The notes under the pieces: generated by a model | The model's database searches: none | Seen by the model: the letters and a program-made list of their open reading frames with translations, nothing else | Told to the model about the DNA's origin: nothing | Shown here: positions 3,070-24,354 of the stretch, in pieces | Layout: each line of letters opens with the position of its first letter | Position numbering within the stretch: the first letter of the stretch is position 1 | Source: Candidatus Dormiibacterota bacterium | GTDB lineage: Bacteria > Chloroflexota > Dormibacteria > Aeolococcales > Aeolococcaceae | Assembly (NCBI GenBank): GCA_036844485.1 | Contig: DAIUFS010000005.1 | Span: 4,825 to 64,697 of the forward strand | Reading direction: 5' to 3' | Length of the DNA stretch: 59,873 bases | Position numbers and translations under genes: made by a program

Positions 3070-3986
3070 CTCTGATCAGTGTCGGCCTGAGCGGGACGCA
3101 GTTCGTCGGGTTTCTGGTCGTCATCGCGTGCGCCTGTGGTGCTGTGGCAGCCATCCTCGACCTCGACATCCACGCTCTGGGGCGCGACCGTGCCCCGTCA
3201 CCCCTCCTGGAGCGCGAGCGCGACCTCGCCGCCAACCTCGGATGGCGATGGCGGAGTTGGGTCACCGTCCGCCTCGCTCTGATCGCAGCCGGGGTGGGAC
3301 TGGGACTCCTGTCGCGCATCTGGATCCTGGTTCTCATCGGCGGCCTGCTCGGCGTTTTCGGGTTTCGGTTCGCCCTGGCCGGCCGCGCGGCAACCCGTCG
3401 GCTGCGCGTCGAACGAGCCTTTCTGGGACGTTTGCGCGACCTCCGCGATCGGATGGCGATTGGCAACCAGTCTCTCGACACGGCGCTCCAGGAGATCGGT
3501 CGCAACCCCGGCCCCGAGCTGGAATACGTTCTGGCGCCGTTGGCTCGCGGGGGCTCGGTTCTCGATAACATCGTGGCTGTGGGAGCGCGCGCGCGCTCGC
3601 CCGTGGTCGAGTACGCGTGCGCAGTCCTGCTGTGGACGCGCAGCCGCAGCCTGGACGCGCTCATCGAGGCGATCGATGAGCTTCTTCTGCCGGTAGGTGA
3701 AGCACAACTGGCGGTTGAGGAGGAGGCCTCGGTCACCCTCACGCAACAGCGCGCGGTCACCATCGCCATGTCGGTCTTGATGCTCGTCATGTTCGCGGTG
3801 ATCGTGCGTGTGGATACCTTCCGCGCCTTTTACCAGTCGTTGGAGGGCAACGTGGTGCTGGTCATGGTGGTGCTGATCTTTGCCGCGCTGGTCGGACTTC
3901 TGGGTGTCATCGTCCGAGTGCGCGGCTGGACTCGTTGGGATCTGCGTCGCCTCGCCGAGGAGCAGGAGAGACTCGGTGCCCAATGA
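3066..3986 (+). CDS. tadB: TadB-like type II secretion system F-family membrane protein
   Basis: Follows cpaF (GTGA overlap); N-terminal TM pair, central helical domain ('GNQSLDTALQEIG'), two C-terminal TMs. Confidence 0.75.
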   Translation: MTLISVGLSGTQFVGFLVVIACACGAVAAILDLDIHALGRDRAPSPLLERERDLAANLGWRWRSWVTVRLALIAAGVGLGLLSRIWILVLIGGLLGVFGFRFALAGRAATRRLRVERAFLGRLRDLRDRMAIGNQSLDTALQEIGRNPGPELEYVLAPLARGGSVLDNIVAVGARARSPVVEYACAVLLWTRSRSLDALIEAIDELLLPVGEAQLAVEEEASVTLTQQRAVTIAMSVLMLVMFAVIVRVDTFRAFYQSLEGNVVLVMVVLIFAALVGLLGVIVRVRGWTRWDLRRLAEEQERLGAQ

Positions 3987-4875
3987 CCTCTGGCCGTATG
4001 TCCTTCTGACCATCGCCGTGGTGGCCCTGTGGGCGCTGGGACTCGCGCGTCTGGGCTTCCTGACGGGCGCCGACGTCCGCGCCTGGCGCCGGCTTGCCGT
4101 CCTGCGCGGCTACAGCCGGCCGCAGACCAGGTTGGAACGTGCCGCGGGACGGAGCCCGGTGCTGCGCCGGCTCCAGGAGGAGCTCGATCTCCGTCGTCTC
4201 CTGGCTGTTGCCGATCGCGATGAAACCGATACCGCCTTCCTCGCCCGCACGGTCTTCCTCGCCCTGCTGGCCATGACCGTGACCCTGGTGGTGGATACCG
4301 GCACGCGCCTCGGTGCCGGAGACTTCATCGTGTCTCCGTGGATCGCGGCCCTCATTGCCATGTTGGTCGTGCTGCTCCGCTTTTCTGCCCTCCGGGCCGC
4401 AGCACGGCGACGGCGGGAGAATGCTGACCGCACCCTCGGCGACATGATGATGCTGGTTGCCATCATGACCGACGGTCGCGGCCTCCAGGTCGAGGACGCC
4501 GTGCGGATCCTGGCAAGGTGTGTGAGATCGTCCGACTTGCGCAGCCTCGTCGAGGGCGGCTGGCGGCGGCTCATCCCCTCTCAGCCACGCAGCACGGCCG
4601 ATCTGTACCGGGCAATCGGCACCGAATACCGGCTCATGCAGTTCACGCTGGTCTCTGACGCCCTCAGCACAACCAACGTCGGAGTCGCCGAGCGGGACAC
4701 CTACACGCGTGTGGCCCAGGCGGTCTACCAGCAACGCCTCACCGAGGCGAGGATGCGTGCGGCGAGAGCGCGAATCCTGGTGACCTTGCCGGTGGCCGGG
4801 ATGCTCGTACCCCTGCTGCTGCTCCTCGGCGCCCCCACCTTTCAGAGCATCACCGTGGGCCTCGGGGGCGGCTGA
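3976..4875 (+). CDS. tadC: TadC-like type II secretion system F-family membrane protein
   Basis: Follows tadB; T2SSF-like 'GRGLQVEDAVRIL'; C-terminal '...ARARILVTLPVAGMLVPLLLLLGAP' is typical of TadC; GTG start inferred. Confidence 0.75.
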   Translation: MPNDLWPYVLLTIAVVALWALGLARLGFLTGADVRAWRRLAVLRGYSRPQTRLERAAGRSPVLRRLQEELDLRRLLAVADRDETDTAFLARTVFLALLAMTVTLVVDTGTRLGAGDFIVSPWIAALIAMLVVLLRFSALRAAARRRRENADRTLGDMMMLVAIMTDGRGLQVEDAVRILARCVRSSDLRSLVEGGWRRLIPSQPRSTADLYRAIGTEYRLMQFTLVSDALSTTNVGVAERDTYTRVAQAVYQQRLTEARMRAARARILVTLPVAGMLVPLLLLLGAPTFQSITVGLGGG

Positions 4876-7219: not shown

Positions 7220-7806
7220 TGTCTGGTGCCCGGGAGCCCGGCGTCATCGATCGTCGTCCGCAGAACCTTCCGGTGCCGCTGGGTGGGGACGCACCGGTTC
7301 GGGCACACCGCTCGCAGCGACGCCGACACATCCGAGGGCGCGCCGGGTTCCTCGTCGCCGGTGCCGGAGTCACCTGCGCCGCGCTGGGTCTGGGGCTACT
7401 TGCCGCCCCCGCGGCCACCGCGGCATCGCTGCTCGGGGACCGCGTCGAAATAGGCAGCATGGTGCTGCGCGAGAAAGGCCAGATCGGTGGATCCCATGCG
7501 ATTGTCTATTCGGGCGACGCATCCTACGTTCTGACCGAACATGGCGACGGGTCGGCGACGGCCGCGGCAGCGTGGGTGTCTTCGGGGGTGAACCTCTCCG
7601 GGGTATGCACCCTCAGGCCAGTGGAGGCTCGGCTGATCGACGAGTGCACCTTCACGATGAGCAGCGGGCAGCTCACGTCCGTCGACGTGCTCGACCCCGC
7701 TCGAGGCCAGGAGTGGCAGCGGACGTACGACGATGGTGTGCGCGCCTCCATCGTGGTGTCACCGGACGGTGCCGCAATCCCGGTGCCGTTCCCGATCGGG
7801 CGCTAG
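7216..7806 (+). CDS. Hypothetical secreted/membrane-anchored protein
   Basis: Overlap-coupled; Arg-rich n-region, hydrophobic stretch, AxA motif (ATAAS), beta-rich C-terminal domain with 2 Cys. Confidence 0.65.
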   Translation: MMSGAREPGVIDRRPQNLPVPLGGDAPVRAHRSQRRRHIRGRAGFLVAGAGVTCAALGLGLLAAPAATAASLLGDRVEIGSMVLREKGQIGGSHAIVYSGDASYVLTEHGDGSATAAAAWVSSGVNLSGVCTLRPVEARLIDECTFTMSSGQLTSVDVLDPARGQEWQRTYDDGVRASIVVSPDGAAIPVPFPIGR

Positions 7807-7888
7807 CGGCTGCAGCGGCCCGGGGAAGCGGAACATCCCGTCTCTGGCAGGATGGAGGAGCCATGACCGACCCGTCGCCGGATCTCAC

Positions 7889-8647
7889 ATGACCGCCAGC
7901 TCCATCCTCCTCGTCGTCGCCGTCTTCCTCGCCAGCGCGGTGGAGATGGTGGAGGCGGCCACCATCGTGGGCGCGGTCGGGGTCACCCGCGGCTGGCGCG
8001 GAGCCCTCCTCGGGGTGGGCGCGGGGCTGCTGGCGCTGGGGGTGGTCGTCGCCGCCCTGGGGCCCGCCCTCACCGCCATCCCCCTCAGCGCGCTGCGCCT
8101 GGCGGTGGGCGGGCTGCTTCTGGTCTTCGGGCTGGGATGGCTGCGCAAGGCCATCCTCCGCGCTGCCGGCCTCAAGGCCCTCCACAACGAGACGGAGACC
8201 TTTCGCGAGCAGCGCGAGCTCGCCCGCGAAGCGGCCGTGGCCGCCGGCCGCCTCGACACGTACGGGTTCACCCTGAGCTTCAAGGGAGTGCTTCTCGAGG
8301 GCCTGGAGGTGGTGTTCATCGTCATCACCTTCGGCAGCAACCAGGGCGGCATCGGGCTGGCCGCGCTCGGTGCTCTCGCCGCCGCCGTGATCGTCCTGGG
8401 CACGGTGGTGGTGGTGCGGGCACCTCTGTCACGCGTGCCGGAGAACACCATGAAGTTCGTCGTCGGCTGCTTGCTCACCTCCTTCGGCACCTTCTGGGGA
8501 GCCGAGGGGGCCGGCGTCACATGGCCGGGCGCGGACATCGCACTGGCCGTGCTCATCCCGGCGACGGTGCTGATCAGCGTCGCCATGGTCGCGGCCCTGC
8601 GTCGCACCACGGGGGCTGCGGCTGTCACGCAACCCGGTGCCGCGTGA
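7889..8647 (+). CDS. COG4280-type multi-pass membrane protein (GDT1/UPF0016-like repeat architecture)
   Basis: Two internal repeats with acidic TM motifs 'SAVEMVEAATIV' and 'VLLEGLEVVFIV'. Confidence 0.8.
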   Translation: MTASSILLVVAVFLASAVEMVEAATIVGAVGVTRGWRGALLGVGAGLLALGVVVAALGPALTAIPLSALRLAVGGLLLVFGLGWLRKAILRAAGLKALHNETETFREQRELAREAAVAAGRLDTYGFTLSFKGVLLEGLEVVFIVITFGSNQGGIGLAALGALAAAVIVLGTVVVVRAPLSRVPENTMKFVVGCLLTSFGTFWGAEGAGVTWPGADIALAVLIPATVLISVAMVAALRRTTGAAAVTQPGAA

Positions 8648-8865
8648 TGCGGCACGTGCGCGCCTTCGTCCTGTTCTGGTGGGACTTCATCGTCGGCGAC
8701 GACTACCGGATCGCGCTTGGGGTGGTTGTCCTGCTCACGGCCACCGCCCTGCTCAGCCGAGCCGGCGTCGCGGTGTGGTGGCTTCTGCCGCTCGGCGTGG
8801 TGGCCATGCTGGCGGTGTCGGTGTTCTCCGTCGCCCGCGACCGTCGCGGTCAAGGCAAGGGATGA
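8647..8865 (+). CDS. Small 2-TM membrane protein
   Basis: TGATG coupling; 'FWWDFIVGDDYRIALGVV' followed by two hydrophobic helices. Confidence 0.75.
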   Translation: MRHVRAFVLFWWDFIVGDDYRIALGVVVLLTATALLSRAGVAVWWLLPLGVVAMLAVSVFSVARDRRGQGKG

Positions 8866-8874
8866 CCGGTGCGG

Positions 8875-9762
8875 TCAGGGCGTCCGCTGCCGAGCGCGTG
8901 AGCGGCGCACCGCCGCGCGGAGCGGCGCCGTCATTCGCCAGCTTCGGGACTGGGTCAGGCTCTCCAGCCTCGACTCGGCGCGTTGCAGCAGGTCACGCAG
9001 CTCGCTGAGCTCCTCGCCGCTCCCCTCCGGAATTCGCGGCACCACCGGTGGCTGCGTGGCGATGCCCTTGGCGAACACGAAGATGAACTCCCCGTCGTCG
9101 TCTCCGTAGCAGGGGATAAATTCCAGCGGCTCGAGGGACAGGTCACCCTCCTTGCAAGCCGCCACCAGGAACTCAAGGAACGTGTCCGGCCTGAAGACGT
9201 GGAAATGGATGCTGTAGTCGAGCTCCATCAGCTCGCGCACCCGCGCCGCCATGCCGGCGGCGTCCAGCTTGGGCATGCCGGCGACGTGCGCCTCGACGTT
9301 GTGCACCCAGTCGCGAAAGTGCTCTTCGCGGGCGGCGTCGGGCCCGTTGCGATACTCGTCAACGACGTGGGCGATCGGCGTGATATCGCGGAACCTGTCG
9401 AAGCTCACACGTGGCTCGGGCAGCGCGACGTAGAGAACGCCGCCCGGACGCAGGACCCGCACCATCTCCTTCAACCCTCGTATGGGATTGTCGAGATGTT
9501 CGATCAGATGATTGGCGATCACGAAGTCGAGGGAGCCGTCCGGGATGGCGCTGAGATCGTGCGCGTCTCCGATGATCGACACCGGTGCGAGGTTCTCGTT
9601 GGCGAGCTCGGGATAGTGTCGCCGGAGCTCTTCGCTCCGCATGCGATCGACGTAGCGCACGTCAACGTCCGGTGGCAGGTGCAGCGGCTCGTGAAGGGCG
9701 CCGATCTCTATCCCGGACCCGCTCACCCACCGCGCCGCGCGCCAGCGTTTCCCCGCTTTCAT
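8875..9762 (-). CDS. Class I SAM-dependent methyltransferase with C-terminal coiled coil
   Basis: 'GIEIGAL', 'SLDFVIANHLIEH', 'VLRPGGVL'; C-terminal 'ESLTQSRSWRMTAPLR'. Confidence 0.85.
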   Translation of the reverse strand: MKAGKRWRAARWVSGSGIEIGALHEPLHLPPDVDVRYVDRMRSEELRRHYPELANENLAPVSIIGDAHDLSAIPDGSLDFVIANHLIEHLDNPIRGLKEMVRVLRPGGVLYVALPEPRVSFDRFRDITPIAHVVDEYRNGPDAAREEHFRDWVHNVEAHVAGMPKLDAAGMAARVRELMELDYSIHFHVFRPDTFLEFLVAACKEGDLSLEPLEFIPCYGDDDGEFIFVFAKGIATQPPVVPRIPEGSGEELSELRDLLQRAESRLESLTQSRSWRMTAPLRAAVRRSRARQRTP

Positions 9763-9951
9763 TGACGGCCCCGATCCCTCCCAGCACTGATGGTCGGCGA
9801 TGCTAACACCGGGTGCCCGGCCTACTCGACAGCTTGGAAGGGCGGCGGTCGCCGGGGCATGGCCGCACTGGCCGGGCACGGCAACCTCGACGGTCAGAAC
9901 CCTATGGGACGGCTCTGACGCGGTGGGCTCAGGGGAACGCCCAGACTCCGA

Positions 9952-10431
9952 TCAGCCGTCGTGCTGGGGTTCCCCCGCAGTGACCAGCTCGCCGTTGGCC
10001 TCGCCGACGCCGGCGGATTCCCCGGGCCTCGGCTCCTCGCTGTCGTCGAGGTCCTTGCCGCCGCTCATGTTGATGCTCCCGTTGAGAGTGGCGCCGTCAT
10101 CGACCTTGAGACGTGCGGCGGAGGCGTCACCGTGAAGACTGCCGGAGCCGCTCAGCGAGAGGCGCCTGCTGCTGGTGACGTTCCCCTTGACCTGTCCGCG
10201 AATGTCGATGTTGCGACCCTCGATGGCGGCCACCACCGTCGCGGACGCCTCGACGATCACGTCGCCGGCCGCAAAGATCTCACCCTCCACTGCACCGCCA
10301 ATGGTGACGCCGCTGTCGGTGCGCAATGTCCCATTCAGGGAATCATTGGGTCCGAGCACGATGGGGCCGCCGGTGCCGCCGGCGTTGCCGCGCTGGCGCC
10401 CGGCACGGATGCCCGGGGTCTCAATAGCCAT
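9952..10431 (-). CDS. Bactofilin (polymer-forming cytoskeletal protein, CcmA/DUF583)
   Basis: Beta-helix repeats 'IVLGPNDSLNGTLRTDSGVTIGGAVEGEI...IRGQVKGNV...LKVDDGATLNGSINM'. Confidence 0.93.
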   Translation of the reverse strand: MAIETPGIRAGRQRGNAGGTGGPIVLGPNDSLNGTLRTDSGVTIGGAVEGEIFAAGDVIVEASATVVAAIEGRNIDIRGQVKGNVTSSRRLSLSGSGSLHGDASAARLKVDDGATLNGSINMSGGKDLDDSEEPRPGESAGVGEANGELVTAGEPQHDG

Positions 10432-10538
10432 CTTTCACCACTCCCAGCGTGAGCACGGCTCGAGTGAGGGGTGCTCTCCTGCCCAACCGCTACGATTCTA
10501 GCGCTCCTCGCTCCTGGAGGATCGCACGGAGTGTGACG

Positions 10539-11519
10539 ATGGGCAGCCCGAGTTCGCGCGAGACCGCTGGCTATGACCGCGCGCTCACCGGCTTCCTGCA
10601 TACGCTCGCCGACCATGACGACCAGTGGGAGGGGGGGCTTCATCGGGAGGTTGCCACCCGCCTGGTGGACCTCACCGGCGCCGAGGCCGGCGAAGCGTGC
10701 CTCGATATCGGAGGCAGTGCGGGGATCGTCACCACCGCCCTGAGTAGAGCGGTGGGGCCTGATGGGTGGGTGGTCACCACCGACATCAGCGAGCCTTCTA
10801 TCGAGGTCGCGCGCTCCCGAGCGACCGGTCACACCCATCTCGTGAAGATGACCGCGGACGACGTGATCTTTCGCGACCACACCTTCGACGTGGTGGTGCT
10901 GTCTCGGTCGATTACCCACGAGGCCGATCCGCACTCGGTCATCGCCGAAGCCAGCCGCGCCCTCAAGCTGGGTGGACGGCTGGCCTTGTTCTGCCGCCGA
11001 CGCAGCCTGGCCACTCCCGCCGAGCAGGCGTTCCTCGATGAGCTGGCGGTGTTCGTGCAACACCACCCGGTCAATCTGCCCCATCAGTTCCTGGGGTACC
11101 CAGGGTTGGCCGATCGAACAGAGGTGGAAGGGGCGCTGATGGCTGCGGGATTCGACAAGGTCACCTTTGGCGACGTGGTGACCGGTGGACGGGCGGACGA
11201 CTCGGCCTCGTGGAACCGCGAAATGATGCGCTGCTGGCCGGCGGCCGCCATCCTCCTCCGCGGGCTGGGTGCCACCAAGCGTCTGCAGTTCGAGGGGCAG
11301 ATCGAGCGAATCATGGCAACGCTGGGCGACGAGGCCTTCCGCTATCACCATCCCTACCTCCTGGCGACCGGGATCAAGATACGGGATCAGCCGTCAGCCG
11401 TCGCGGTGGTGCTGCCCGGCGGGACGAGAGCCCTGCCACTGGGAAACCGGCATCGCGGCGGTGGCGAGGGTGATCCCCACGAGGAAAGCGACAGTCGTGA
11501 CAACCACGCGACGGCGTGA
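10539..11519 (+). CDS. Class I SAM-dependent methyltransferase (UbiE-like)
   Basis: 'ACLDIGGSAG', 'VVTTDISEPSIEVAR', 'TFDVVV', 'RALKLGGRL'; the C-terminal tail overlaps a convergent gene. Confidence 0.8.
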   Translation: MGSPSSRETAGYDRALTGFLHTLADHDDQWEGGLHREVATRLVDLTGAEAGEACLDIGGSAGIVTTALSRAVGPDGWVVTTDISEPSIEVARSRATGHTHLVKMTADDVIFRDHTFDVVVLSRSITHEADPHSVIAEASRALKLGGRLALFCRRRSLATPAEQAFLDELAVFVQHHPVNLPHQFLGYPGLADRTEVEGALMAAGFDKVTFGDVVTGGRADDSASWNREMMRCWPAAAILLRGLGATKRLQFEGQIERIMATLGDEAFRYHHPYLLATGIKIRDQPSAVAVVLPGGTRALPLGNRHRGGGEGDPHEESDSRDNHATA

Positions 11520-12518: not shown

Positions 12519-15278
12519 GTGGCACCGGGTATAGTTCTGGCCATACTTGGCGCGTCGATGACGCTGTCTCCAGGGACGGTGCACGCGTTCGGCAAGGTCG
12601 CCTACAGCCAGGTGCCCGAATCGCTGATCGCCAGCGGGGCGGCGAGCCTACCCGTTGGCTACGGCAGCGGAAGCAACTTCTGTGCCAGCGTCTCAGGCAC
12701 TGTCAGCGTCAACGGGCGCCCGCAGACCATCACCGGCGCAAACCTTGTGGGCAGCGGCGGTGTATCTGCGCAGGTCGACAAGGTGTACGCGTGTAGGCCG
12801 GCCGAGGGTTACGCGTGGAGCAACGATGCCATCGAGGGCGATTTCCAGTGCACTGAGCTCAGCGTTCGCTATTTGTGGGACGTCTACGGGATCGGCGCCG
12901 TTGGCGTTCGTTCCGGGTACTCATTGGTGTCCGACGTCAAGGCACAATTCCCCAACATTCAAGTCGGTACGCCCGGTCCGCGCAACCTTCCCCTTCCAGG
13001 TGACGTGCTCAGTATGGGTGGAGGAGCCGCCTCACCCAATGCAAACCCCAACGGCCATACGGCTGTCGTCACCTCCGTCAATGTCGATACCAATCCGCTG
13101 AGCCCCACGTATGGCAACGGAACCATCACCGAGGTCGAGGAGAACGGCAGCAGCACGGGATGGGATCAGCTCACCGTCTCGAACTGGTCGATCTACTTTG
13201 GCGACCCCAGCACGGTCAACCAGCCGATGAACTACTACTACCCGGACATCTCCTGGCTCGAGATGTCGACGGCGGGGACCCCGCCGGCGTTCACCGCTGC
13301 GAACCCTCCTGCAGTCGTCACCGCCGGGATGTCGCCGACGTACACATTCGCTGCCAGCGGCGACCCCCTGCCGGTGTTCGCAGTCCAGAGCGGCGCCCTG
13401 CCCCTCGGTCTCCAGCTCAACACGGCCGGCGTCCTGACCGGCGCCGCTACCACCGCTGGTGCCTCGTCCTTCTCGGTCGCAGCCAGCAACCGCGCGGGAT
13501 CAGCGGTCACCCCCAAGCTCACCATCGTCACGCCGGCGGCCCAGCTCCATGCGGACGTCAACGGTGACGGGAAATCTGATCTCATCGCGGTCAGCGACAC
13601 AACGACGTCTGTGATGCTCTCCAACGGGCCGGGCTTTGGTCCCGCCACATATTGGTCGACAACGCCCTTCTACGGCTCGCGTGGGACATTCGCCGCCGAC
13701 GTCAACGGCGATGGCAAATCCGATCTGGTTACCGTCGACGAGACCGCCACCTGGGTGATGCCGTCGACGGGATCGAACTTTGCTGCGCCACAGAAATGGT
13801 CCTCCACCCCCTTCTACGGGTCGCGGGGCACTTTCCTGGCTGATGTCAACGGGGACGGCCGCACCGACCTGGTCGCTGTCAACGACACCTCAACCTGGGC
13901 GATGCTCTCGACGGGGTCTGGATTTGGTCCACCGCAGCTCTGGTCGACGACGGCCTTCTACGGCACGAAGGCGACCTTCCTGGGCGATGTCAACGGAGAC
14001 GGCAAGTCCGATCTGGTCGCCGTGGACGATACGGCCACATGGGTGATGCTCGCGACGGGCTCCGGGTTCGGTACGCCGCAGCAATGGTCGGCGACTCCGT
14101 CTTCTGGCACCCGCGGCACCTTCCTTGCCGATGTCAATGGAGATGGCAAGTCCGACCTGGTCGCGGTCAACGACACCAGCACGTCGGTGATGTTTGCGCT
14201 CGGCACCGGTTTTGGGCCGCCGGTAAGGTGGTCATCGGACAGCTTCTATGGCAGCAGAGCCACATTCATGGCTGACGTCAGCGGCGGTGGCAAGGCGGAT
14301 CTCGTTGCCGTCAACGACAATTCAACCTGGGTGATGCTGTCAATGGACTCGCGCTTTGGCCCCGCTCAAACCTGGACGTCGACGCCTTTCTTCGGCTCGC
14401 AGGCGACGCTGTCCGGCGACGTCAACGGCGACGGCAGGTCGGATCTGGTTGCCGTCAACGGCAATTCAACCTGGGTGATGCTGTCCACGCCGTCGGGATA
14501 CGCTGCACCGGCCCTCTGGTCATCGACCCCGTTCTACGGCACGAGGGGCACCTTCCTGGCCGACGTCAACGGCGACGGCAAGGCTGACCTGATTGCCGTG
14601 AACGACAATTCCACGTGGGTCATGCTGTCCAATGGGCTCGGCTACGGGCCCCCCCAGCAGTACTCCTCCGGCCCGTTCTACGGTTCCAGGCACACGTTCC
14701 TCGCGGATCTCAACCATGACGGCAAAGCTGACCTCGTCGCCGTCGACGACGCCTCGACCCGGGTGATGCTGTCCACCGGGACCGCCTTCGCGCTGCCAAC
14801 GGTGTGGTCGCAGAGTCCGTTCTACGGCACGAGGGGCACCTTTCTGGCCGACGTCAACGGCGACGGCAAGGCTGATCTGGTGGCGGTCAACGACAGCTCG
14901 ACATGGGTGATGGCGTCGACCGGCACAGGCTTCGGTCCGCCGACCGCATGGTCTTCCACCCCCTTCTACGGCGCGCGAGCGACACTGCTCGCGGACGTGA
15001 ACGGAGATGGCAGGGCCGACTTGGTCGCTGTCAACGCCACGAGTACGTGGGTGATGCTGTCCAGCGGTGCTGGGTTCGGCGCGCCGAGGCTCTGGTCGAC
15101 TAGCGGCACCACTGGTTCGCTAGGAACGTTCGCGGCGGATGTCAACGGCGACGGTTTGATGGATCTGGTGAGCGTCAACCCTCACGGTACCATCGTGACC
15201 CCGGCAACGAGCCCGTCGTTTGACCCCCCAACCGGCTGGTCGGCGCGGCCATTCACGGGTACAAAAGCGATCCTTTAG
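12519..15278 (+). CDS. Secreted CHAP-like amidase + putative Ig domain + 12 FG-GAP/VCBS-like repeats
   Basis: Signal peptide; 'FQCTEL...PGDVL...GHTAVV...VEEN' (Cys-His-Glu); He_PIG-like 'GALPLGLQLNTAGVLTG'; DVNGDGxxDL repeats. Confidence 0.85.
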   Translation: MAPGIVLAILGASMTLSPGTVHAFGKVAYSQVPESLIASGAASLPVGYGSGSNFCASVSGTVSVNGRPQTITGANLVGSGGVSAQVDKVYACRPAEGYAWSNDAIEGDFQCTELSVRYLWDVYGIGAVGVRSGYSLVSDVKAQFPNIQVGTPGPRNLPLPGDVLSMGGGAASPNANPNGHTAVVTSVNVDTNPLSPTYGNGTITEVEENGSSTGWDQLTVSNWSIYFGDPSTVNQPMNYYYPDISWLEMSTAGTPPAFTAANPPAVVTAGMSPTYTFAASGDPLPVFAVQSGALPLGLQLNTAGVLTGAATTAGASSFSVAASNRAGSAVTPKLTIVTPAAQLHADVNGDGKSDLIAVSDTTTSVMLSNGPGFGPATYWSTTPFYGSRGTFAADVNGDGKSDLVTVDETATWVMPSTGSNFAAPQKWSSTPFYGSRGTFLADVNGDGRTDLVAVNDTSTWAMLSTGSGFGPPQLWSTTAFYGTKATFLGDVNGDGKSDLVAVDDTATWVMLATGSGFGTPQQWSATPSSGTRGTFLADVNGDGKSDLVAVNDTSTSVMFALGTGFGPPVRWSSDSFYGSRATFMADVSGGGKADLVAVNDNSTWVMLSMDSRFGPAQTWTSTPFFGSQATLSGDVNGDGRSDLVAVNGNSTWVMLSTPSGYAAPALWSSTPFYGTRGTFLADVNGDGKADLIAVNDNSTWVMLSNGLGYGPPQQYSSGPFYGSRHTFLADLNHDGKADLVAVDDASTRVMLSTGTAFALPTVWSQSPFYGTRGTFLADVNGDGKADLVAVNDSSTWVMASTGTGFGPPTAWSSTPFYGARATLLADVNGDGRADLVAVNATSTWVMLSSGAGFGAPRLWSTSGTTGSLGTFAADVNGDGLMDLVSVNPHGTIVTPATSPSFDPPTGWSARPFTGTKAIL
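13551..15278 (+). repeat. Twelve tandem 144-nt (48-aa) intragenic repeats
   Basis: Repeat starts at 13551 and 13695 are 144 nt apart; 12x144 ends exactly at the stop codon; consensus FLADVNGDGKxDLVAVNDxSTWVMLSTGxGFGPPxxWSSTPFYGxRxT. Confidence 0.95.
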
Positions 15279-17278
15279 CGCGTACGAGGCGTGAGAGCCC
15301 TAAAGAGCTCGGCGTATGACTCACCGTAGTTCTGCTGCCAATGTGCTCCTAGAATAGTGTCACGCGCGCTTTCGCCCGCGGCCCTCCGTGCGTCGGATGG
15401 CAGCGCTAGGAGCCTGTGCATCGCCGCGACGAGTGCGTCCATGTCGCGCGGCGCGAACAACCAGCCGTTATCGCCGTCCTCAATAAGCTCCGGAATTCCA
15501 AATACATCGGCCGATAGAACCGGGACGCGGAATGCCATCGCTTCGAGCATGGAACGGGGGAGGGACTCAATGTCGGAGGCGGAAACGAGGACGTCGGACA
15601 ACGCGTACCAGTCCCAGATATCGGTCGTGGTCGGGACGAGGCGGAGGCGCGACCCCACCCCGGCTGCGTTGGCCAACTCCCGAAGCGCTTCGGAGTACGA
15701 CTGGGATGCGCTCCCCAATAGGACGAGCATGACATCCGGGTGCTCCGATCCGACCTCGACGAAAGCCTCCGCTAGTCCGGGAATGGACTTTCGCTTATCG
15801 TCAGGCTGCCCGACTGCCAGCAGCACTGTAGCCTGCGCTGAAATGTCGTGTGCTCGTCGCGCTGCATCCCTGTCGAAGGTGCTCGCAAACGCATCGATAG
15901 CTTTGACATTGACCCCGTACGGGATCATCAAACGCCGATCAGAATCTGCGTACCTCGCGAAGAGGTCACTCGTCGCACGAGCCTCGAAGACCAATCGGGT
16001 CGCCCCGGCGAGGCAGTTCTTCATGCGTTCGCGGATGTACGGATCCCAGCCATCTTGACCGTAAAATACATTGAGCCAAGCCTCGACGGCGTAGCTCTCG
16101 TGGATGGCCCAGACGGTGGGAATCCCGAGCCGCTCCGCTGCATCCGCTGCTGGCAGCTCGGCGAGAGTGTTCACCAGCACGAGGCCGGCGCCTGTGCCTC
16201 GTATGATCATCGAGAGCTCGCGCACCTGGCCCTCGTAGCTCGCCGCATCCCGGGGTGGGGTGCGGCCGGAAACGATAACGTCGATGCCCAGTTGTTCGAG
16301 CTCAGCACGCAACACCCCACCGGAAGGCGAAACCACGGTGCAGGAGCCGAGTGTCGGCGCCAGCTGTCTGAGCAGCTCCTGAAGGTACAGCTGGCCGCCA
16401 CCGAGACTGAGTTGGTGAGTGAAAACCATCACTCGGGAACCACTCTGCTGGGGCCACCCCGGGACGGATTGAACGGCATGCACCGTCCGCAACCGCGAGA
16501 CCCTGCTCCATTCAGCCTCGGTGGCCGAGCTCATGTTCGGTGAGAGGCGAACCGAGCGTGGCTTGCTGCGAACGGATGTCCCGTTCCCTGCACTGGCGAC
16601 GACGACAACCTCGCGCCCTTCGCCTCCCTGGGCATCGACGGGCTCGGAGTACTCGAAGCCCGCGAAGGGGCCAAAGCGTTCCTTCGCAGCCTCGACGTCG
16701 AACCGCGGCAGGCGTAGACGAGCGCGTCCAGCCACGCAACCGTCGACCTCCACGTCCACGCGTGAGGGGTAGCGACCCTCAACGAGGGCGACACCGCGCA
16801 CGGTGAGGAGGCCATCGGAGATCACCTGGCCATCGGCGGGGCTGTCGAGCAGGACACCCGACCCGATCAAACGGAGAGTTCGATCGAACAGTGTCGCCAC
16901 CTCCCCATGCCGGCCCGTTGCCACCACCTGTACGGAGACGTCCAGGTCGGGCCAGGCGGCGAGGTCGACGGTGCAGCTCCAGCCACAGTCGGATGAGGCC
17001 TCAGGCTCGTTCAGATTCTCGGGGACGTCGGGCCGGGAGAGGCCCAGCTGCGCGGCAAGCCGCTTCTGCCCACCCACGATGATCTCGACCCTGGCCGGGG
17101 TGTCCGACCCGTCGAGCGCCCAGCCGCGGAAGTCGACGAGGAGCGCCCGCCACACCTCGTCGTCGGTGGGCTCGTCGACAACACCTCGGACCGATGCGAG
17201 CTCAGTCGATCGCTGGCGAATGCGGCGGCCGAGCTCGCGAGCCCGACGGATCGGCGCCCGAACAAGTTCAGTTCTCAT
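15275..17278 (-). CDS. GT4-family glycosyltransferase with two N-terminal Ig-like modules
   Basis: 'LSLGGGQLYL', 'VWAIHE', E-x7-E motif 'ESLPRSMLEAMA', 'GIPELIEDGDNGWL'. Confidence 0.9.
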   Translation of the reverse strand: MRTELVRAPIRRARELGRRIRQRSTELASVRGVVDEPTDDEVWRALLVDFRGWALDGSDTPARVEIIVGGQKRLAAQLGLSRPDVPENLNEPEASSDCGWSCTVDLAAWPDLDVSVQVVATGRHGEVATLFDRTLRLIGSGVLLDSPADGQVISDGLLTVRGVALVEGRYPSRVDVEVDGCVAGRARLRLPRFDVEAAKERFGPFAGFEYSEPVDAQGGEGREVVVVASAGNGTSVRSKPRSVRLSPNMSSATEAEWSRVSRLRTVHAVQSVPGWPQQSGSRVMVFTHQLSLGGGQLYLQELLRQLAPTLGSCTVVSPSGGVLRAELEQLGIDVIVSGRTPPRDAASYEGQVRELSMIIRGTGAGLVLVNTLAELPAADAAERLGIPTVWAIHESYAVEAWLNVFYGQDGWDPYIRERMKNCLAGATRLVFEARATSDLFARYADSDRRLMIPYGVNVKAIDAFASTFDRDAARRAHDISAQATVLLAVGQPDDKRKSIPGLAEAFVEVGSEHPDVMLVLLGSASQSYSEALRELANAAGVGSRLRLVPTTTDIWDWYALSDVLVSASDIESLPRSMLEAMAFRVPVLSADVFGIPELIEDGDNGWLFAPRDMDALVAAMHRLLALPSDARRAAGESARDTILGAHWQQNYGESYAELFRALTPRTR

Positions 17279-18513
17279 TCGGGCGCGGTGGGCATTCGGC
17301 GTGCCGTCACGTTGAAGCCCAGCGGGAGCAGTGCTCCATTATCCAGAGGCGACAGCGCCGAGACGGCTCTCGCGACACCTGCGAGTGCGTTGGCGGCCGT
17401 GCGTCGCCGGCCGTCGAGTCCATCGGCATTCGACCCCTCCATGAGCCACGACGGGACGATCTGCATCAGTTGTGCCAGTGTGGTGAAGTAATCACCTCGG
17501 TTGCTGATCTCGATGTCCGCGAATCCCGCGATCTCCAGCAGCATCCTCAGGGCTGATGGCGTGTATCGATAGAAGTCGTTCGGCATCTCATGGAGTATCC
17601 ATACGAAGGGAACGGTCAGCACCAGGCTGCCACCCGGTCGCAGGACCCTTGCCACCTCGGCCAGAGCCCGGTCGGGTGTGCTGATGTGCTCGAGCACCTC
17701 CGTCATGAGGACTGCGTCGACAGAGCGGTCGTGCAACGGGAGGTTGTCTGCCGAAGCATGGATGTCCGAATGCCGCGCGCCCTCGTGAATCGAGTGTTCC
17801 CAGTCGATGGTTACATAGTCGGCGTGGTGAAATAGCTCTCGATATGGAGCGTCTCCAGCTCCGACGTCGACGACGCGAGCTCCGCGAGGGATGGTCTGCG
17901 CGACCTCAGCGACGAAACTCGCGATTCCATCGCGCACGTATGGGGCTTCCCGATTGAAGCCCTCCAGGCTTTCGGAGAAGGGGTGCGTACGCTTGCTGCT
18001 CGCAGCGCTCATTTGGGAGCTCGCCCACCCCGCTTCGCGAAGCACCTCCAGAGCTTGGTCGAGCGCCGAGAGGTCCAGCCTCGTTGCGGCCTTGCTTTCC
18101 GCGTTCTCGTCATCGCGCACGCGGAACACGTAATCCATCAGGGTCGCTTTGGTCCCGCCCTGTCCTGTAACGACAATCTGCACGTGCACATCGGGGTCCG
18201 GCCACCCGATTAGGTCGACGGATCCCGCCCACCCGCACTCGGAGGAGGCTCCCGGCTCACCGAGGTTGACAGGGACGTCCGGGCGACGAAGGCCGAGTTG
18301 AGCGGGACCGCCGCGCTGGCGACTGACCAGGATCTCTACGGCAGACGGAGGTCGGAGTCCGTCGAGCGCCCAACCGCAGAAGGCGGTGTGCTCACCCCGC
18401 CGAAGATTCGCCCCTTCCGGCTCGTCAACACAGCCGCGGATCAGTCCCTCGACCGATGCGCGCGTCCTCGTCCGAGAAACTCGTGCTCGAACGCGGTGGG
18501 CCAGCCAGGGCAT
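17275..18513 (-). CDS. Class I SAM methyltransferase with N-terminal Ig-like module
   Basis: 'VVDVGAG', 'SVDAVLMTEVLEH', 'VLRPGG', 'HEMPNDFYRYT'; start may be 18513 or 18579. Confidence 0.85.
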   Translation of the reverse strand: MPWLAHRVRARVSRTRTRASVEGLIRGCVDEPEGANLRRGEHTAFCGWALDGLRPPSAVEILVSRQRGGPAQLGLRRPDVPVNLGEPGASSECGWAGSVDLIGWPDPDVHVQIVVTGQGGTKATLMDYVFRVRDDENAESKAATRLDLSALDQALEVLREAGWASSQMSAASSKRTHPFSESLEGFNREAPYVRDGIASFVAEVAQTIPRGARVVDVGAGDAPYRELFHHADYVTIDWEHSIHEGARHSDIHASADNLPLHDRSVDAVLMTEVLEHISTPDRALAEVARVLRPGGSLVLTVPFVWILHEMPNDFYRYTPSALRMLLEIAGFADIEISNRGDYFTTLAQLMQIVPSWLMEGSNADGLDGRRRTAANALAGVARAVSALSPLDNGALLPLGFNVTARRMPTAPE

Positions 18514-18539
18514 CGAGGCATTCTCGTCCAGGGCGGGGT

Positions 18540-19514
18540 CTAGCTGCTTCGGCTGGCGATCGCGTCGATCGTTGAGCACCCCACATCTCGCGCGTCCCAG
18601 GTCTTCTGCAACCCATCTTCCAGAGATGTCGGCATGTAGGGAATGAGTGACTGAAGCTTGGATACGTCAAGAACGATGGCGTCGACATCATACGGGCGTA
18701 CGGGCTGAAATTCGAGGATCGCCGGACGACCAACAACGCGGCTCACGCATTCGACCACGTCGGCGACGCTGCTTCCGCGCCCTGAACCAACGTTGACGAC
18801 ATCGAGATCAACTCCCTCGAGGATCAGCTGGGCCAAAGCCTCTGAGACGTCGTCGACGAAGACATAGTCTCGCTTCATCGAACCATTGCCCAGGACCGTG
18901 ATCGGCGCCCCGGTGGAGATGCGCTCGAGGAAGACCGCGATGACTCCCTGATTGCGGTCGTTGGGCTGACCAGGACCATAGACATTGGCGCACCGAACGA
19001 TGCGGACGGGCATACCGTACGTCCTGCGGTACATCCCAGCGTAGGCCTCGGCAGCCAGGTGCGACGCCCCGTAGGGTGAGACTGGCAGGGTCTCGTCCGT
19101 CTCACGCACGGGAGTGCGTACGGGATTGCCGTAGACCGTCCCACCGGACGAGATATAGGTCACTGTGACCCCGGCATGGCGACGCGTTTCCTCGAGCGTT
19201 CTGATTAGCGGGGACAGCGTCGCCTTCGCGTCCTCGAGAGGCTCGGCAGCCGCCGATGGAGGGAGGAGGCCACCTGCCGCAACAACGACGTGGTCAACGC
19301 CGGGCAGCGCATCGGCAAGAGCAGGCGGCTCCGAAGCATCGGCAACAATGATGCGAATTCCGGCGGCTCGTGCTCTCCCAGTTGCGGCGGTTTCGGACCT
19401 GGTCAGGCTGACAACGTCAGCGCCGTCAGAAGCGAGCCGGTGCCCGAGAGCGGCGCCGACAAAACCCCAACCGATGACCAGCACACGCTGCGGAGGTGTC
19501 CGAAGGCGATTCAT
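18540..19514 (-). CDS. NAD-dependent epimerase/dehydratase (extended SDR)
   Basis: 'LVIGWGFVG', 'YISSGGTVYG', 'PVSPYGASH', 'ANVYGPGQ', 'RDYVFVDDV'. Confidence 0.9.
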   Translation of the reverse strand: MNRLRTPPQRVLVIGWGFVGAALGHRLASDGADVVSLTRSETAATGRARAAGIRIIVADASEPPALADALPGVDHVVVAAGGLLPPSAAAEPLEDAKATLSPLIRTLEETRRHAGVTVTYISSGGTVYGNPVRTPVRETDETLPVSPYGASHLAAEAYAGMYRRTYGMPVRIVRCANVYGPGQPNDRNQGVIAVFLERISTGAPITVLGNGSMKRDYVFVDDVSEALAQLILEGVDLDVVNVGSGRGSSVADVVECVSRVVGRPAILEFQPVRPYDVDAIVLDVSKLQSLIPYMPTSLEDGLQKTWDARDVGCSTIDAIASRSS

Positions 19515-19610
19515 TCTTGCACGATAACCATCAAGCGGACGTGATGTGTTCCTCCGGACCCCGCTCGCTCACGGTCGACGGCGTCTGGAACGCATGTCCC
19601 AATGGGCAAC

Positions 19611-19688
19611 TGGTCGGGAAGGGGAGATTCGAACTCCCGACCTCACGGTCCCGAACCGTGCACTCTAACCTGGCTGAGCTACTTCCCG
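19611..19688 (-). tRNA. tRNA-Pro (anticodon CGG), CCA encoded
   Basis: Reverse complement CGGGAAGTAGCTCAGCCAGGTTAGAGTGCACGGTTCGGGACCGTGAGGTCGGGAGTTCGAATCTCCCCTTCCCGACCA folds as a cloverleaf; anticodon loop TTCGGGA; T-loop TTCGAAT. Confidence 0.97.
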
Positions 19689-21402: not shown

Positions 21403-22932
21403 ATGGGCACCATGCCGAGAATCAAAGCCGGAGCACGGCCTCCCCTGGTCGCGCTCGGTACGCCGATCGCGCCGCGGATCGGAATTGTCGTCGTCGCCTA
21501 CAACGCCGTCTCGACGCTTGCCCATGTCCTGGATCGCATCCCCGCACACTTCCGATCGCGAATCGAGGAGATTCTGGTATGCGACGACGCCAGCCAGGAT
21601 TCGACCTACCTCGTCGGCCTCGGCTACAAGCAGGTTGTGACCGACCTCCCTCTGACCATCGTCCGGCACCCCCGCAATCTGGGCTACGGTGGCAACCAGA
21701 AGGCGGCTTACCGCCTCGCCATCGAGCGCGGCCTCGACATCGTCGTGCTGCTCCATGGCGACGGTCAGTACGCGCCCGAGTGCCTGCCTGAGATTGTGGC
21801 GCCGCTGGAGCGCGGCGAATGCGACGCCGTCTTCGGCTCGCGAATGATGGTCAAGGGGCAGGCGCGCAAGGGCGGGATGCCCCTGTACAAGTACGTCGGC
21901 AACCGGATTCTCACCCGCTTTGAGAACCGCGTCCTCGGTACCTCGCTGTCCGAGTTCCACTCCGGGTATCGTGCCTACAGCGTCAGGGCGCTGCAGGGCC
22001 TCGACCTCGAGAAGAACAGTGACGGATTCAACTTCGACACCCAGATCATCATCCAGCTCGTCGACGCAGGCAAACGTATCGTCGAAATTCCCATCCCCAC
22101 GTACTACGGCAACGAGATCTGCTCCGTCAACGGCATGAAATACGCGAAAGACGTAGCTGGCGACGTGCTTCGATACCGGCTGTCCAAGCAGGGTTTCATG
22201 TCGGGCGGCATCGCGTCTGTCGACAGCGAGTACCAGCTCAAGGAGAGCAATGACAGCTCCCACGGCGTCATGCTCGACTGGCTCCGGCAGATGCCACCCT
22301 CGCGCGTTCTCGACCTCGGCTGCAGTGGCGGCGCCTTTGCGTCGCGAGTCCGCGCTCTCGGGCACCACGTGACCGGCGTCGACAACGAGGAGCTTGGCCA
22401 CGTCCGGGAACGCTGCGACGCATTCTTCGAGGCCGACCTGGACCGCGGCCTTCCTCATGAGGTCACCGCCGCCGACCCATTCGATATCATCGTCTGTGCC
22501 GATGTCCTCGAGCACCTTCGACGGCCCGAGGATCTGCTCGCGCAGTTGCGCGGTGTTCTCGTGCCGCGCGGTGCCGTGATCGCCTCGGTGCCCAACTTCG
22601 GCCACTGGTACTCGCGCGGCCGGACCGCGCTTGGGTTGTTCGACTATGACCAACGGGGCATCCTCGATCACGGCCACGTGCGCTTCTTTACCCGACGCAG
22701 CTTCGAGCGGCTCACCCGCAACGCGGGGCTCACTCCGCTCCGTCGCCGTGTGACCGGTCTTCCCCTCGACGCTCTGACCAACACGCCACAGCGTTCGCTA
22801 ACCCGTGCGGTGAGGGCGGCCGACCGTGTCGCGGTGGCGTTGCGGCCAACGCTGTTCGGGTATCAGTTGATCTACCACTTCGAACTTTCATCGTCGGCGC
22901 GCGTCCACGATGCTGCCCACGTCGCTGCCTGA
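21403..22932 (+). CDS. Bifunctional GT2 (polyprenol-phosphate sugar synthase-like) / class I SAM methyltransferase
   Basis: N: 'VVAYNA', 'CDDASQD', 'NLGYGG', 'LHGDGQY', 'SEFHSGYRAY'; C: 'VLDLGCSGG', 'FDIIVCADVLEHL', 'DHGHVRFFT'. Confidence 0.9.
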   Translation: MGTMPRIKAGARPPLVALGTPIAPRIGIVVVAYNAVSTLAHVLDRIPAHFRSRIEEILVCDDASQDSTYLVGLGYKQVVTDLPLTIVRHPRNLGYGGNQKAAYRLAIERGLDIVVLLHGDGQYAPECLPEIVAPLERGECDAVFGSRMMVKGQARKGGMPLYKYVGNRILTRFENRVLGTSLSEFHSGYRAYSVRALQGLDLEKNSDGFNFDTQIIIQLVDAGKRIVEIPIPTYYGNEICSVNGMKYAKDVAGDVLRYRLSKQGFMSGGIASVDSEYQLKESNDSSHGVMLDWLRQMPPSRVLDLGCSGGAFASRVRALGHHVTGVDNEELGHVRERCDAFFEADLDRGLPHEVTAADPFDIIVCADVLEHLRRPEDLLAQLRGVLVPRGAVIASVPNFGHWYSRGRTALGLFDYDQRGILDHGHVRFFTRRSFERLTRNAGLTPLRRRVTGLPLDALTNTPQRSLTRAVRAADRVAVALRPTLFGYQLIYHFELSSSARVHDAAHVAA

Positions 22933-22965
22933 ACAGCAGTCGACGCTGGTCAGCACAGCCGTCCG

Positions 22966-24354
22966 ATGACTCAATCCGATCGCCGCCTGCTCAGCCTTGT
23001 CCTCCTCAGCGTCGGCGTCCTCGACCGTTTCGGCAACCTCTCTACTCCGGCGCTCATACTGATTGTCTTGTCCGTGGGGCTGGGCATCCAAAGTTTCTCG
23101 CGGAAGCCCTTGGGCCCGGCCCTGCCGCGCTCGGCGGGGATCGCGTTGCTGGTGGCGCTCGCGGCGACCACGCTTCTCTATCAGAGGAAGTTTGGCGATC
23201 CGCTGTTCCTGGACACGTTCGCCCTGCTCGCTGCCGCCGTCGTCCTCTACAGCGTGGCAAAGCGCGGCGTGGCCAAGGCTGTGGCGTTCGCATTCGCTGG
23301 TCTGTCAACCATGGCAGCGATCCTGGCGAACGCCAGCTGGGCGTACGCCGACATCGACGTGTTCCACTTCCAGCAGCAAGCGTCGCAGGCGTTGTTGCAC
23401 GGGCAGAACCCCTACTCCCCCGTGGTGCCAAGCCCGCAGATGGTCGCGCCCGGAGTCCTGGGGTGGTTGCACCTGCATTTTCCCTACGGACCCATCCTGC
23501 CCGTGCTCGAAGCCCCGTTTCGCCTTCTCGGCGACGTTCGCATCCTGCACGTGGTGGCAGCCCTCATCACCTCGGTGGCCGTTCTGACGCTGGCACGCCG
23601 GGCAGGGACACTCGACCGCAGCGCCTGCGTGGTGATGGCGTTTCCGCTGACCGTCGGCATGATCATCTTCAGCTGGGTCGACGTCATCACCATGGCCGGC
23701 CTGGCGGTGTGGCTCGTCTCCTTCCGCAGCCATCCGAAGATCGCGACCTTAGCGCTGGCGCTGGCACTGGGAGCCAAGCCGACGACCCTCATAGCGTTGG
23801 TGCCGATCTTCTTCTGGTCGATCCGCGCCCGGCGGCAGGTGATCCTCGCCGCCATCGTCGCCGGGCTGTTCGTGCTTCCTTTCGCGGTGGTCACCGGCCT
23901 CTCACAGTTCTACTACAACGTTCTCGGTGTCCAGCTCGCGGTCCTTCCCCGGTTCGACGCCCTCACCATCAACTCGTACCTCCACTCGTACCAGCTGCCC
24001 ATTCTTCCGTTTGCGGTGTCGGCTTCAGTCATTGCCGCCGCGACTGTGCTGGTGTTGCGCCAGCGTCCCACCACGTACGGTGACCTCCTCACAGGGACGG
24101 CCATCCTCGCCACCGTGTCCTTCCTGGTCGCCAAGTGGGCATACCTCAACTACTACTACATCCCTGCGGTGCTGCTGATGCTGGCGATTGCGGGCAACGG
24201 GCTGGCTCTCGACGTTCCCGAGATGATCAGACCCCCCGCTGTGTTCCTCAGATCCGGTGATTGGTTACGCCGAACATTGGACCGCCTTCCTACGCCTCGG
24301 CGCCTTCCGGGTGCGAACATCCCTGCTCGTGAGGCACCTGAATCGGTGGCCTGA
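22966..24354 (+). CDS. GT-C fold (GT87/DUF2029-like) multi-pass membrane glycosyltransferase
   Basis: 'IDVFHF...ALLHGQNPY', 'FPYGP', 'ALGAKP', 'NYYY'; many TMs; next to the GT2 gene. Confidence 0.7.

Follow-up and report, generated by a model that had tools for sequence, protein, structure and literature searches.

A Big_7-type Ig-like module shared by a GT4 glycosyltransferase and an adjacent methyltransferase of a Candidatus Dormiibacterota bacterium as a candidate docking unit of glycan-building enzymes

A stretch of 59,873 nucleotides from an uncultured Candidatus Dormiibacterota bacterium of soil (GCA_036844485.1, contig DAIUFS010000005.1, positions 4,825 to 64,697), called the window here and used for all coordinates, was analysed for an N-terminal module that is found on two adjacent enzymes, a GT4 glycosyltransferase and a methyltransferase (MT). 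The source assembly is a 2.0-Mb metagenome-assembled genome (MAG) that is 75% complete. Together with a gene of the extended short-chain dehydrogenase/reductase (SDR) type at their head, the two genes form a tight three-gene operon directly downstream of tRNA-Pro(CGG), in which the stop codon of the MT overlaps the start codon of the GT4 (ATGA) (Table 1). The longest MT reading frame (17275-18579) begins with a GTG at 18579 and would overlap the upstream gene; the start is likely the ATG at 18513, as in the ortholog P0119. From its domains (Pfam Glycos_transf_1, 1.6e-27, 96 bits; Glyco_transf_4, 7e-9) and its EX7E motif (ESLPRSMLE, residues 571-579) the GT4 gene product is predicted to be a retaining glycosyltransferase of GT-B fold and family GT4, and the nearest solved structures to its catalytic domain are generic GT4 enzymes (BshA-type, TarM(Se) and PimB). 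The MT has a Methyltransf_11 match at 58 bits (1.3e-15) and a Gly-rich loop for S-adenosylmethionine (SAM), VDVGAGDA, as is expected of a class I SAM-dependent methyltransferase. No transmembrane segment or signal peptide was detected in either protein, and Pfam and NCBIfam name only the catalytic domains in both. The closest genome matches of the GT4 (47% identity) and of the SDR (55-57%) were found in Dormibacteria MAGs.

Table 1. Features of the SDR-MT-GT4 operon and its surroundings (window positions unless another locus is named)
Feature	Position	Strand	Remarks
GT4 glycosyltransferase gene, 667 aa	15275..17278	-	basic N-terminus, two Big_7-like modules, linker helix, GT-B catalytic domain
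GT4 Arg-rich segment, residues 1-28	17195..17278	-	10 R/K, 3 D/E; predicted amphipathic helix 10-21
GT4 module 1, residues 29-139, m1-type Big_7-like Ig domain, 'RPDV'	16862..17194	-	pLDDT >90
GT4 module 2, residues 140-247, m2-type Big_7-like Ig domain, 'RFDV'	16538..16861	-	BLAST, tree, model
GT4 catalytic domain, residues 280-667	15278..16441	-	Pfam and structure neighbours
Methyltransferase (MT) gene, 412 aa from ATG 18513	17275..18513	-	start set by comparison with ortholog P0119
MT basic N-terminal segment (MPWLAHRVRARVSRTRTRAS...)	18445..18513	-	within the BLASTP match to GT4
MT module, m1-type Big_7-like Ig domain	18112..18444	-	53% identity with GT4 module 1 in 111 aa
Class I SAM-dependent methyltransferase domain, 'type A'	17278..17934	-	Methyltransf_11 1.3e-15, Methyltransf_23
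Extended-SDR 'epimerase' gene, operon head	18540..19514	-	Pfam Epimerase 2e-42
tRNA-Pro(CGG), directly upstream of operon	19611..19688	-	
Secreted CHAP + FG-GAP repeat protein, convergent to GT4	12519..15278	+	stop overlaps GT4 stop by 4 bases
FG-GAP hydrolase genes of related loci	L060 4183-6930; L061 2185-5512; L062 1-2770		counterparts of the window gene at 12519-15278 (+)

A first-pass annotation, made from the letters of the window alone, had counted by hand 49 identities in 79 ungapped positions between the two N-termini, and this count was found to be exact (GT4 residues 52-130, 17125-16889, against MT 18375-18139). A BLASTP comparison of the two proteins gave one ungapped match of 127 columns with 64 identities (E 6e-33), which spans the Arg-rich segment before [VI]RGxVDEP as well as the whole module. 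The homology of the two N-termini is thus far beyond chance. The second, more diverged copy that had been pointed out in the GT4 ('RFDV', residues 140-247) was also recovered, with 30% identity to copy 1 (E 1e-5), and the catalytic domains were confirmed as unrelated, with Glycos_transf_1 and EX7E in the GT4 as against Methyltransf_11 in the MT. Beyond these three, no further copies of the module were found in the MAG assembly (75% complete).

To place the module, a hidden Markov model (HMM) of the three window copies (A1) was run against 1.84 billion cluster representatives. This matched 1693 proteins at E <= 1e-3 and 103 at E <= 1e-30, most of which hold 4-9 tandem matches in repeats of ~105 residues, mostly behind signal peptides. 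In 44 of the 45 matched proteins that were sampled, the Pfam family Big_7 (PF17957, 'Bacterial Ig domain', E-set) lies at coinciding coordinates, with a best E of 2e-72, and the sampled proteins also carry glucosaminidase, Amidase_3, subtilase (S8), NHL/Kelch and other extracellular domains. An alignment of 24 modules from glycosyltransferases and methyltransferases (A5) was then compared by hhalign with one of 23 secreted repeats (A6), of which 20 are individually Big_7 by Pfam, giving a probability of 99.6% (E 1.7e-23) over 104 columns. In a 28-row alignment of tandem pairs (A3), the motifs D-x-P, G-W-A, R-P-D-V, S/C-G-[FYW] and G-x-x-G are shared over the full length. It may be noted that GT4 module 1 and the MT module gave no Big_7 match in the Pfam scan. 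On profile comparison, the shared module is best described as a divergent and currently unannotated branch of Big_7. The first-pass annotation could assign it to no named domain, which does not hold in view of the HMM survey and the hhalign result. As to whether the module matches a domain that is already characterised, the family has a name, Big_7, and no experimentally established function was found for it; the literature on Big_7/PF17957 that we found consists of passing domain annotations, with no functional study.

The Ig-like (immunoglobulin-like) nature that had been suggested for the module was borne out by modelling. AlphaFold2 with A3 as its input gave for GT4 residues 1-262 a mean predicted local distance difference test score (pLDDT) of 84.7 and two beta-sandwiches, at 30-138 and 141-245. 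All strands of the model lie within the sandwiches, which are flanked by a short helix at 10-21 and a linker helix at 249-260. A Foldseek search of the Protein Data Bank (PDB) gave an Ig-like tandem as the first match, 3PDD (CbhA Fn3-like/X1 tandem, E 4.7e-10), followed by the BIg domains of SiiE, the sulfite-oxidase E-set domain and the Ig domains of LdtMt2. The modelled fold is Ig-like, in the manner of the solved Big_7 family example. Sequence searches of the PDB with module profiles returned little, one being empty and another weak with 3PDD as the best match (E 0.1). The C-terminal region of EfAmi1 also appeared there at E 0.1 and was dropped, because this domain is absent from the crystal (PMC10167349). 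A likeness to the carbohydrate-binding modules (CBMs) of Wzt-C, a comparison that the first-pass annotation had proposed, did not materialize; there was no Pfam match to PF14524 at E up to 10 and no Wzt structure among the top 50 Foldseek matches. An extracellular location of the two enzymes was rejected for the lack of a signal peptide or transmembrane segment together with their cytoplasmic donors. Since both enzymes need a nucleotide sugar or SAM and lack export signals, we take the Ig modules to work in the cytoplasm.

The module on the MT had been taken by the first-pass annotation for a recent duplication. This is not what the DNA suggests, since GT4 module 1 and the MT module are only 59% identical at the nucleotide level. 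By codon position, 72, 78 and 46 of 111 sites are identical (41% at third positions), and the same codon is used at only 28 of the 59 identical residues. Synonymous sites are therefore saturated. In a maximum-likelihood tree of the modules, module 1 and module 2 of the GT4 proteins separate into two starred clades, with every MT module placed in that of module 1. There the window MT pairs with P0119 (99/95), and the pair lies in a starred clade of 10 rows with module 1 of GT4, GT4-MT and GT4-TylF proteins. The MT module of another locus, L005, groups with GT4 modules other than those of its own locus, and because it stands apart from the window MT/P0119 pair, the module was acquired by methyltransferases twice. 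The gene order of the window is also found elsewhere. In L059 the SDR (75% identity), the module-MT (64%) and the start of the GT4 follow one another with the same 4-bp overlap; in L060 a GT4 with 79% identity to that of the window is directly preceded by the C-terminus of the MT (84%); and the module-MT present in L061 and L062 is 61% identical. The MT module itself persists in three or more further lineages, at 57-64% protein identity. As the synonymous sites are saturated, the MT module forms a clade with its ortholog and the split order of SDR, module-MT and GT4 recurs at 64-75% identity, the duplication is old and maintained. A recent duplication or a gene conversion is ruled out by the codon-position identities and the module tree.

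The evidence that ties the module to a common task of the two enzymes comes from the architectures found in relatives. The module-bearing GT4 subfamily occurs in 53 species genomes, with 1-4 modules per protein, and its hosts are Ca. Dormibacteria/Dormibacterota, Thermoleophilia, Solirubrobacterales, Acidimicrobiia, Nocardioides and Aeromicrobium. An SDR homolog directly adjoins the GT4 in at least 40 of the 53 loci. Fusions of the order module-module-GT4-MT are seen in P0008-10, P0103, P0018 and L008, where the C-terminal MT is of type A and 45-64% identical to the window MT. Just upstream of the GT4-MT fusion in L005 there is a gene that consists of one m1 module and an unrelated class I methyltransferase ('type B'). 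A TylF-type methyltransferase is fused to the GT4 in P0003/L060 (GT4 79% identical), P0131 and P0027. This makes three unrelated methyltransferase families that are either fused to a module-GT4 or, for types A and B, found with a module of their own. Such a Rosetta-stone pattern of fused and split forms is the main support for a putative coupling role. The earlier proposal that the module couples the two enzymes is hence backed on its comparative side by the MT-GT4 fusions, the second methyltransferase with its own module and the TylF fusion. In the closest relative, L060 (region 2240-4171), the GT4 runs into the TylF-type O-methyltransferase domain and is followed by a 394-aa methyltransferase and then by a convergent FG-GAP gene. 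The window is without the TylF domain and the 394-aa methyltransferase (~1.9 kb), so that two methylation functions have been lost or gained in a lineage-specific way. In L008 (7744-10655), a Thermoleophilia MAG, the first module of the GT4-MT fusion lies in two frames (7744-8043 and 7818-10655), which makes it a frameshift pseudogene or else the product of a misassembly.

The pathway in which the enzymes may act was approached through the neighbourhoods of the relatives. The L005 locus has rml genes, more methyltransferases, GT2 glycosyltransferases, a GT2-MT fusion with YfhO, and wzm and wzt, the latter with a Wzt_C domain. In L037 the order is MT, Wzt (ABC_tran + Wzt_C), Wzm, one unassigned gene, SDR, module-GT4, PMT_2, one unassigned gene and GT2, and a TylF-type MT lies further on in the opposite strand. 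Wzt_C is present in 25 of the 31 genomes with a module-GT4, and in ~10 genomes of Solirubrobacterales type it is either part of the locus or no more than ~22 kb away from the GT4. In pathways that depend on an ATP-binding cassette (ABC) transporter, the terminal cap that Wzt_C recognises is often methyl or methyl-phosphate, and the modules for polymerisation and termination, which act as complexes, are fused in some systems and separate in others (PMC11231755, PMC3482155, PMC9445017). By analogy with these loci we infer that the window organism may also export its glycan through an ABC transporter.

The remaining genes around the operon were noted as well. The catalytic motif of the SDR reads YGASH instead of YxxxK. 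Among the SDR orthologs that lie beside a module-GT4, the last position is K in Acidimicrobiia and Nocardioides, R in Dormibacteria, H in Solirubrobacterales and the window, and C or T in a few, and since it varies by lineage the substitution is a subfamily trait and not decay. The operon has a GC content at third codon positions of 0.69-0.74, compared with ~0.80-0.92 for most other genes of the window, and adjoins the tRNA-Pro(CGG); no integrase was seen around 12519-19688. The operon could have been acquired long ago as a glycan island, or its composition could simply be the low-GC bias that is usual for polysaccharide loci. Secreted proteins in which a CHAP or GH25 hydrolase is joined to an FG-GAP propeller adjoin the module-MT or GT4 genes in three lineages, and in L061 and L062 the FG-GAP hydrolase gene lies immediately upstream of the module-MT. 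By binding the methylated glycan, the propeller may anchor autolysins to a wall polymer. On the far side of the FG-GAP gene there are two class I methyltransferases without the module, at 8875-9879 (-) and 10449-11519 (+), and a bactofilin gene between them at 9952-10431 (-). On the other side of the operon, beyond the tRNA, a GT2-methyltransferase fusion is followed by a GT87-like membrane protein of GT-C type (21403-24354, +), and a like fusion is paired with a YfhO-type GT-C in L005 (1-5718). These pairs suggest the extracytoplasmic addition of a possibly methylated sugar, donated by polyprenyl phosphate, to the same envelope glycan.

Putting these results together, the reading we favour with moderate confidence is that the Arg-rich segment and the Ig module make up a portable unit for the docking or assembly of the cytoplasmic enzymes by which a methylated cell-envelope glycan is built on a lipid carrier. 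The work would be done on a lipid-linked glycan at the inner face of the membrane. There the GT4 with its two modules would add sugars, and the SAM-dependent MT with one m1-type module would methylate the GT4 product. The common unit would hold both enzymes at the same nascent glycan, membrane site or protein complex, so that an MT fused to the GT4 would need no module of its own and a separate MT, as in the window, would carry its own copy. The methylated glycan would then probably be exported by an ABC transporter. We infer a cytoplasmic, membrane-proximal location, and co-localisation as the selected function. All close homologs have an Arg-rich N-terminal segment with 5-10 R/K and few acidic residues, and the hydrophobic moments of these segments are 0.5-1.0 (0.97 in the GT4 and 0.54 in the MT); helix 10-21 of the GT4 is modelled at a low pLDDT of ~50. 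The basic segment is plausibly an anchor to the membrane surface. As for the Ig module, there are two precedents. The affinity of TarS for its acceptor and its processivity are increased by tandem Ig-like CBM domains (PMC5156392), and an Ig-like CBM is predicted in the Klebsiella O7 terminator, of a kind that was not known in other terminators (PMC11231755). Glycan binding, Ig-Ig association and a spacer function are candidate sub-mechanisms of the docking unit.

Several results weigh against the docking unit and bear at the same time on the alternatives. Neither wzm/wzt nor Wzt_C was found in the window or in its own MAG, which is 75% complete, and a tblastn search of the MAG for homologs of the wzm, YfhO and rmlC of L005 returned only GT2-type matches. 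The assignment to Big_7 stays below the Pfam cut-off of 24.1 bits, module 2 reaching 18.5 bits in the whole protein and 14.6 alone, and a binding activity of the module is putative. In most of the 53 module-GT4 loci there is no module-bearing MT within 8 kb, so that its primary role would lie with the GT4; the MT found nearby in L004 (329 aa) lacks one; and L061 and L062 have the orthologous module-MT beside FG-GAP hydrolase genes with no module-GT4 within 5-10 kb, so that the adjacency of the two is not obligatory. The Ig-like domain of TarS, moreover, is dispensable for catalysis (PMC5156392). The loci with a module-GT4 and no module-MT, the bare MT of L004 and the dispensability in TarS would all suit an explanation with no coupling at all, in which the Ig module would be a general aid to the solubility or stability of this GT4 subfamily and the MT copy a by-product of a rearrangement by which an ancestral GT4-MT fusion was split and a promoter-proximal 5′ end supplied. 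We hold this to be rather unlikely, since a mere by-product would hardly be kept at the observed level of identity in three or more lineages in the face of saturated synonymous sites, and the unrelated methyltransferase of L005 gained an m1 module independently.

A direct association of Ig modules, by which the m1 of the MT pairs with m1 or m2 of the GT4, or both join one oligomer, and a non-covalent complex takes the place of the fusion, is a doubtful though reasonable alternative. It would explain why, of the two module types of the GT4, the MT has specifically that of module 1 and why fused and split forms alternate among relatives; TarS, too, trimerises through its tandem Ig-like domains (PMC5156392), and in ABC-transporter-dependent pathways polymerase and terminator modules are known to join in complexes although their distribution over proteins varies (PMC11231755). 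Yet a fixed interface is a poor fit to orthologous GT4 proteins with one to four modules, the MT module of L005 is not the closest to the GT4 module of its own locus, and the module-MT of L061 has no GT4 neighbour to pair with. In a spacer or ruler, a further alternative, the basic segment would anchor at the membrane and rigid Ig modules would set the height of the catalytic domain, as the coiled coils do in chain-length control of the WbdD and WbbB kind. The variable number of modules, the basic N-terminal segments kept in all relatives, the N-terminal GT4 model with its short helices (10-21 and 249-260) as the only ones, and the Wzt_C transporters of related loci, as readers of a terminal cap, agree with this. 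But the membrane binding on which it depends is presumed for a segment with a pLDDT of ~50 and, in the MT, a low hydrophobic moment (0.54), one module more or less (~4 nm) would make a short ruler, and the MT may modify the repeat unit, its role as a terminator being putative. We regard the ruler as improbable. Cytoplasmic O-glycosylation of the neighbouring FG-GAP protein in the manner of GtfA is unlikely given the wzm/wzt context in relatives. Returning to the docking unit, its widest form would make the cytoplasmic Big_7 offshoot an interchangeable address tag (basic membrane-binding segment plus Ig module) that assembles glycosyltransferases and unrelated methyltransferases into a polymerase/tailoring (or terminator) machine, with the number of modules setting the reach along the chain, as a coiled-coil-free analogue of the WbdD/WbbB ruler in Dormibacterota and Actinomycetota; we consider this quite unlikely.

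What is known here is the Big_7 Ig-like family itself, and what is new are cytoplasmic Ig modules of Big_7 type common to a GT4 and methyltransferases. A family so far placed on secreted proteins is extended by them to cytoplasmic enzymes that are left unannotated at current Pfam thresholds. How enzymes are gathered on one lipid-linked chain in ABC-transporter-dependent pathways is understood only for a few proteobacterial coiled-coil systems, and an Ig module shared by GT4 and MT, and swapped for covalent fusion in relatives, would be a simple and testable alternative in little-studied groups such as Dormibacterota, Thermoleophilia and Acidimicrobiia. If it is a true docking tag, it could be used in glycoengineering to co-localise glycan-tailoring enzymes.

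In comparison with known systems, the module is homologous at the profile level to Big_7 and to the X1/Fn3-like modules of Clostridium thermocellum CbhA (3PDD), with which it shares the motifs, the Ig sandwich and the tandem habit. Big_7 domains typically come in 4-9 tandem copies in secreted proteins with signal peptides, whereas the window copies are one or two, N-terminal, behind a basic segment and on cytoplasmic enzymes that use nucleotide sugars or SAM. Wzt_C (PF14524) is also a beta-sandwich in like pathways but belongs to a different family. TarS of Staphylococcus aureus is a cytoplasmic glycosyltransferase of wall teichoic acid, a polymer that is later exported by an ABC transporter, and its tandem Ig-like, CBM-like domains are proposed polymer binders (PMC5156392). 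In TarS, however, these domains are C-terminal, CBM48/68-like, trimer-forming and attached to a GT-A enzyme, while those of the window are N-terminal, of Big_7 type, on a GT-B enzyme of family GT4 and common to a separate methyltransferase. TarM, which belongs to family GT4, oligomerises through a beta-sheet domain, and the solved structures nearest to the window GT4 include TarM(Se). The window differs from the proteobacterial terminators in that the N-terminal GT4 model (1-262) has no coiled-coil ruler and there is no kinase domain; the terminator role of its MT is putative, and no transporter was found in the 75%-complete MAG. Its lineage is also a different one, Dormibacterota/Actinomycetota-like as against the Proteobacteria of the O9a, O12 and O7 systems. 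Klebsiella O7 ORF6 nevertheless has a predicted Ig-like CBM beside its methyltransferase-kinase (PMC11231755, PMC3482155), and in E. coli O9a WbdA/WbdD, Klebsiella O12 WbbB and Klebsiella O7 ORF6 the glycosyltransferase and methyltransferase modules that serve one lipid-linked chain are variably fused or split, as they are in the relatives of the window enzymes.

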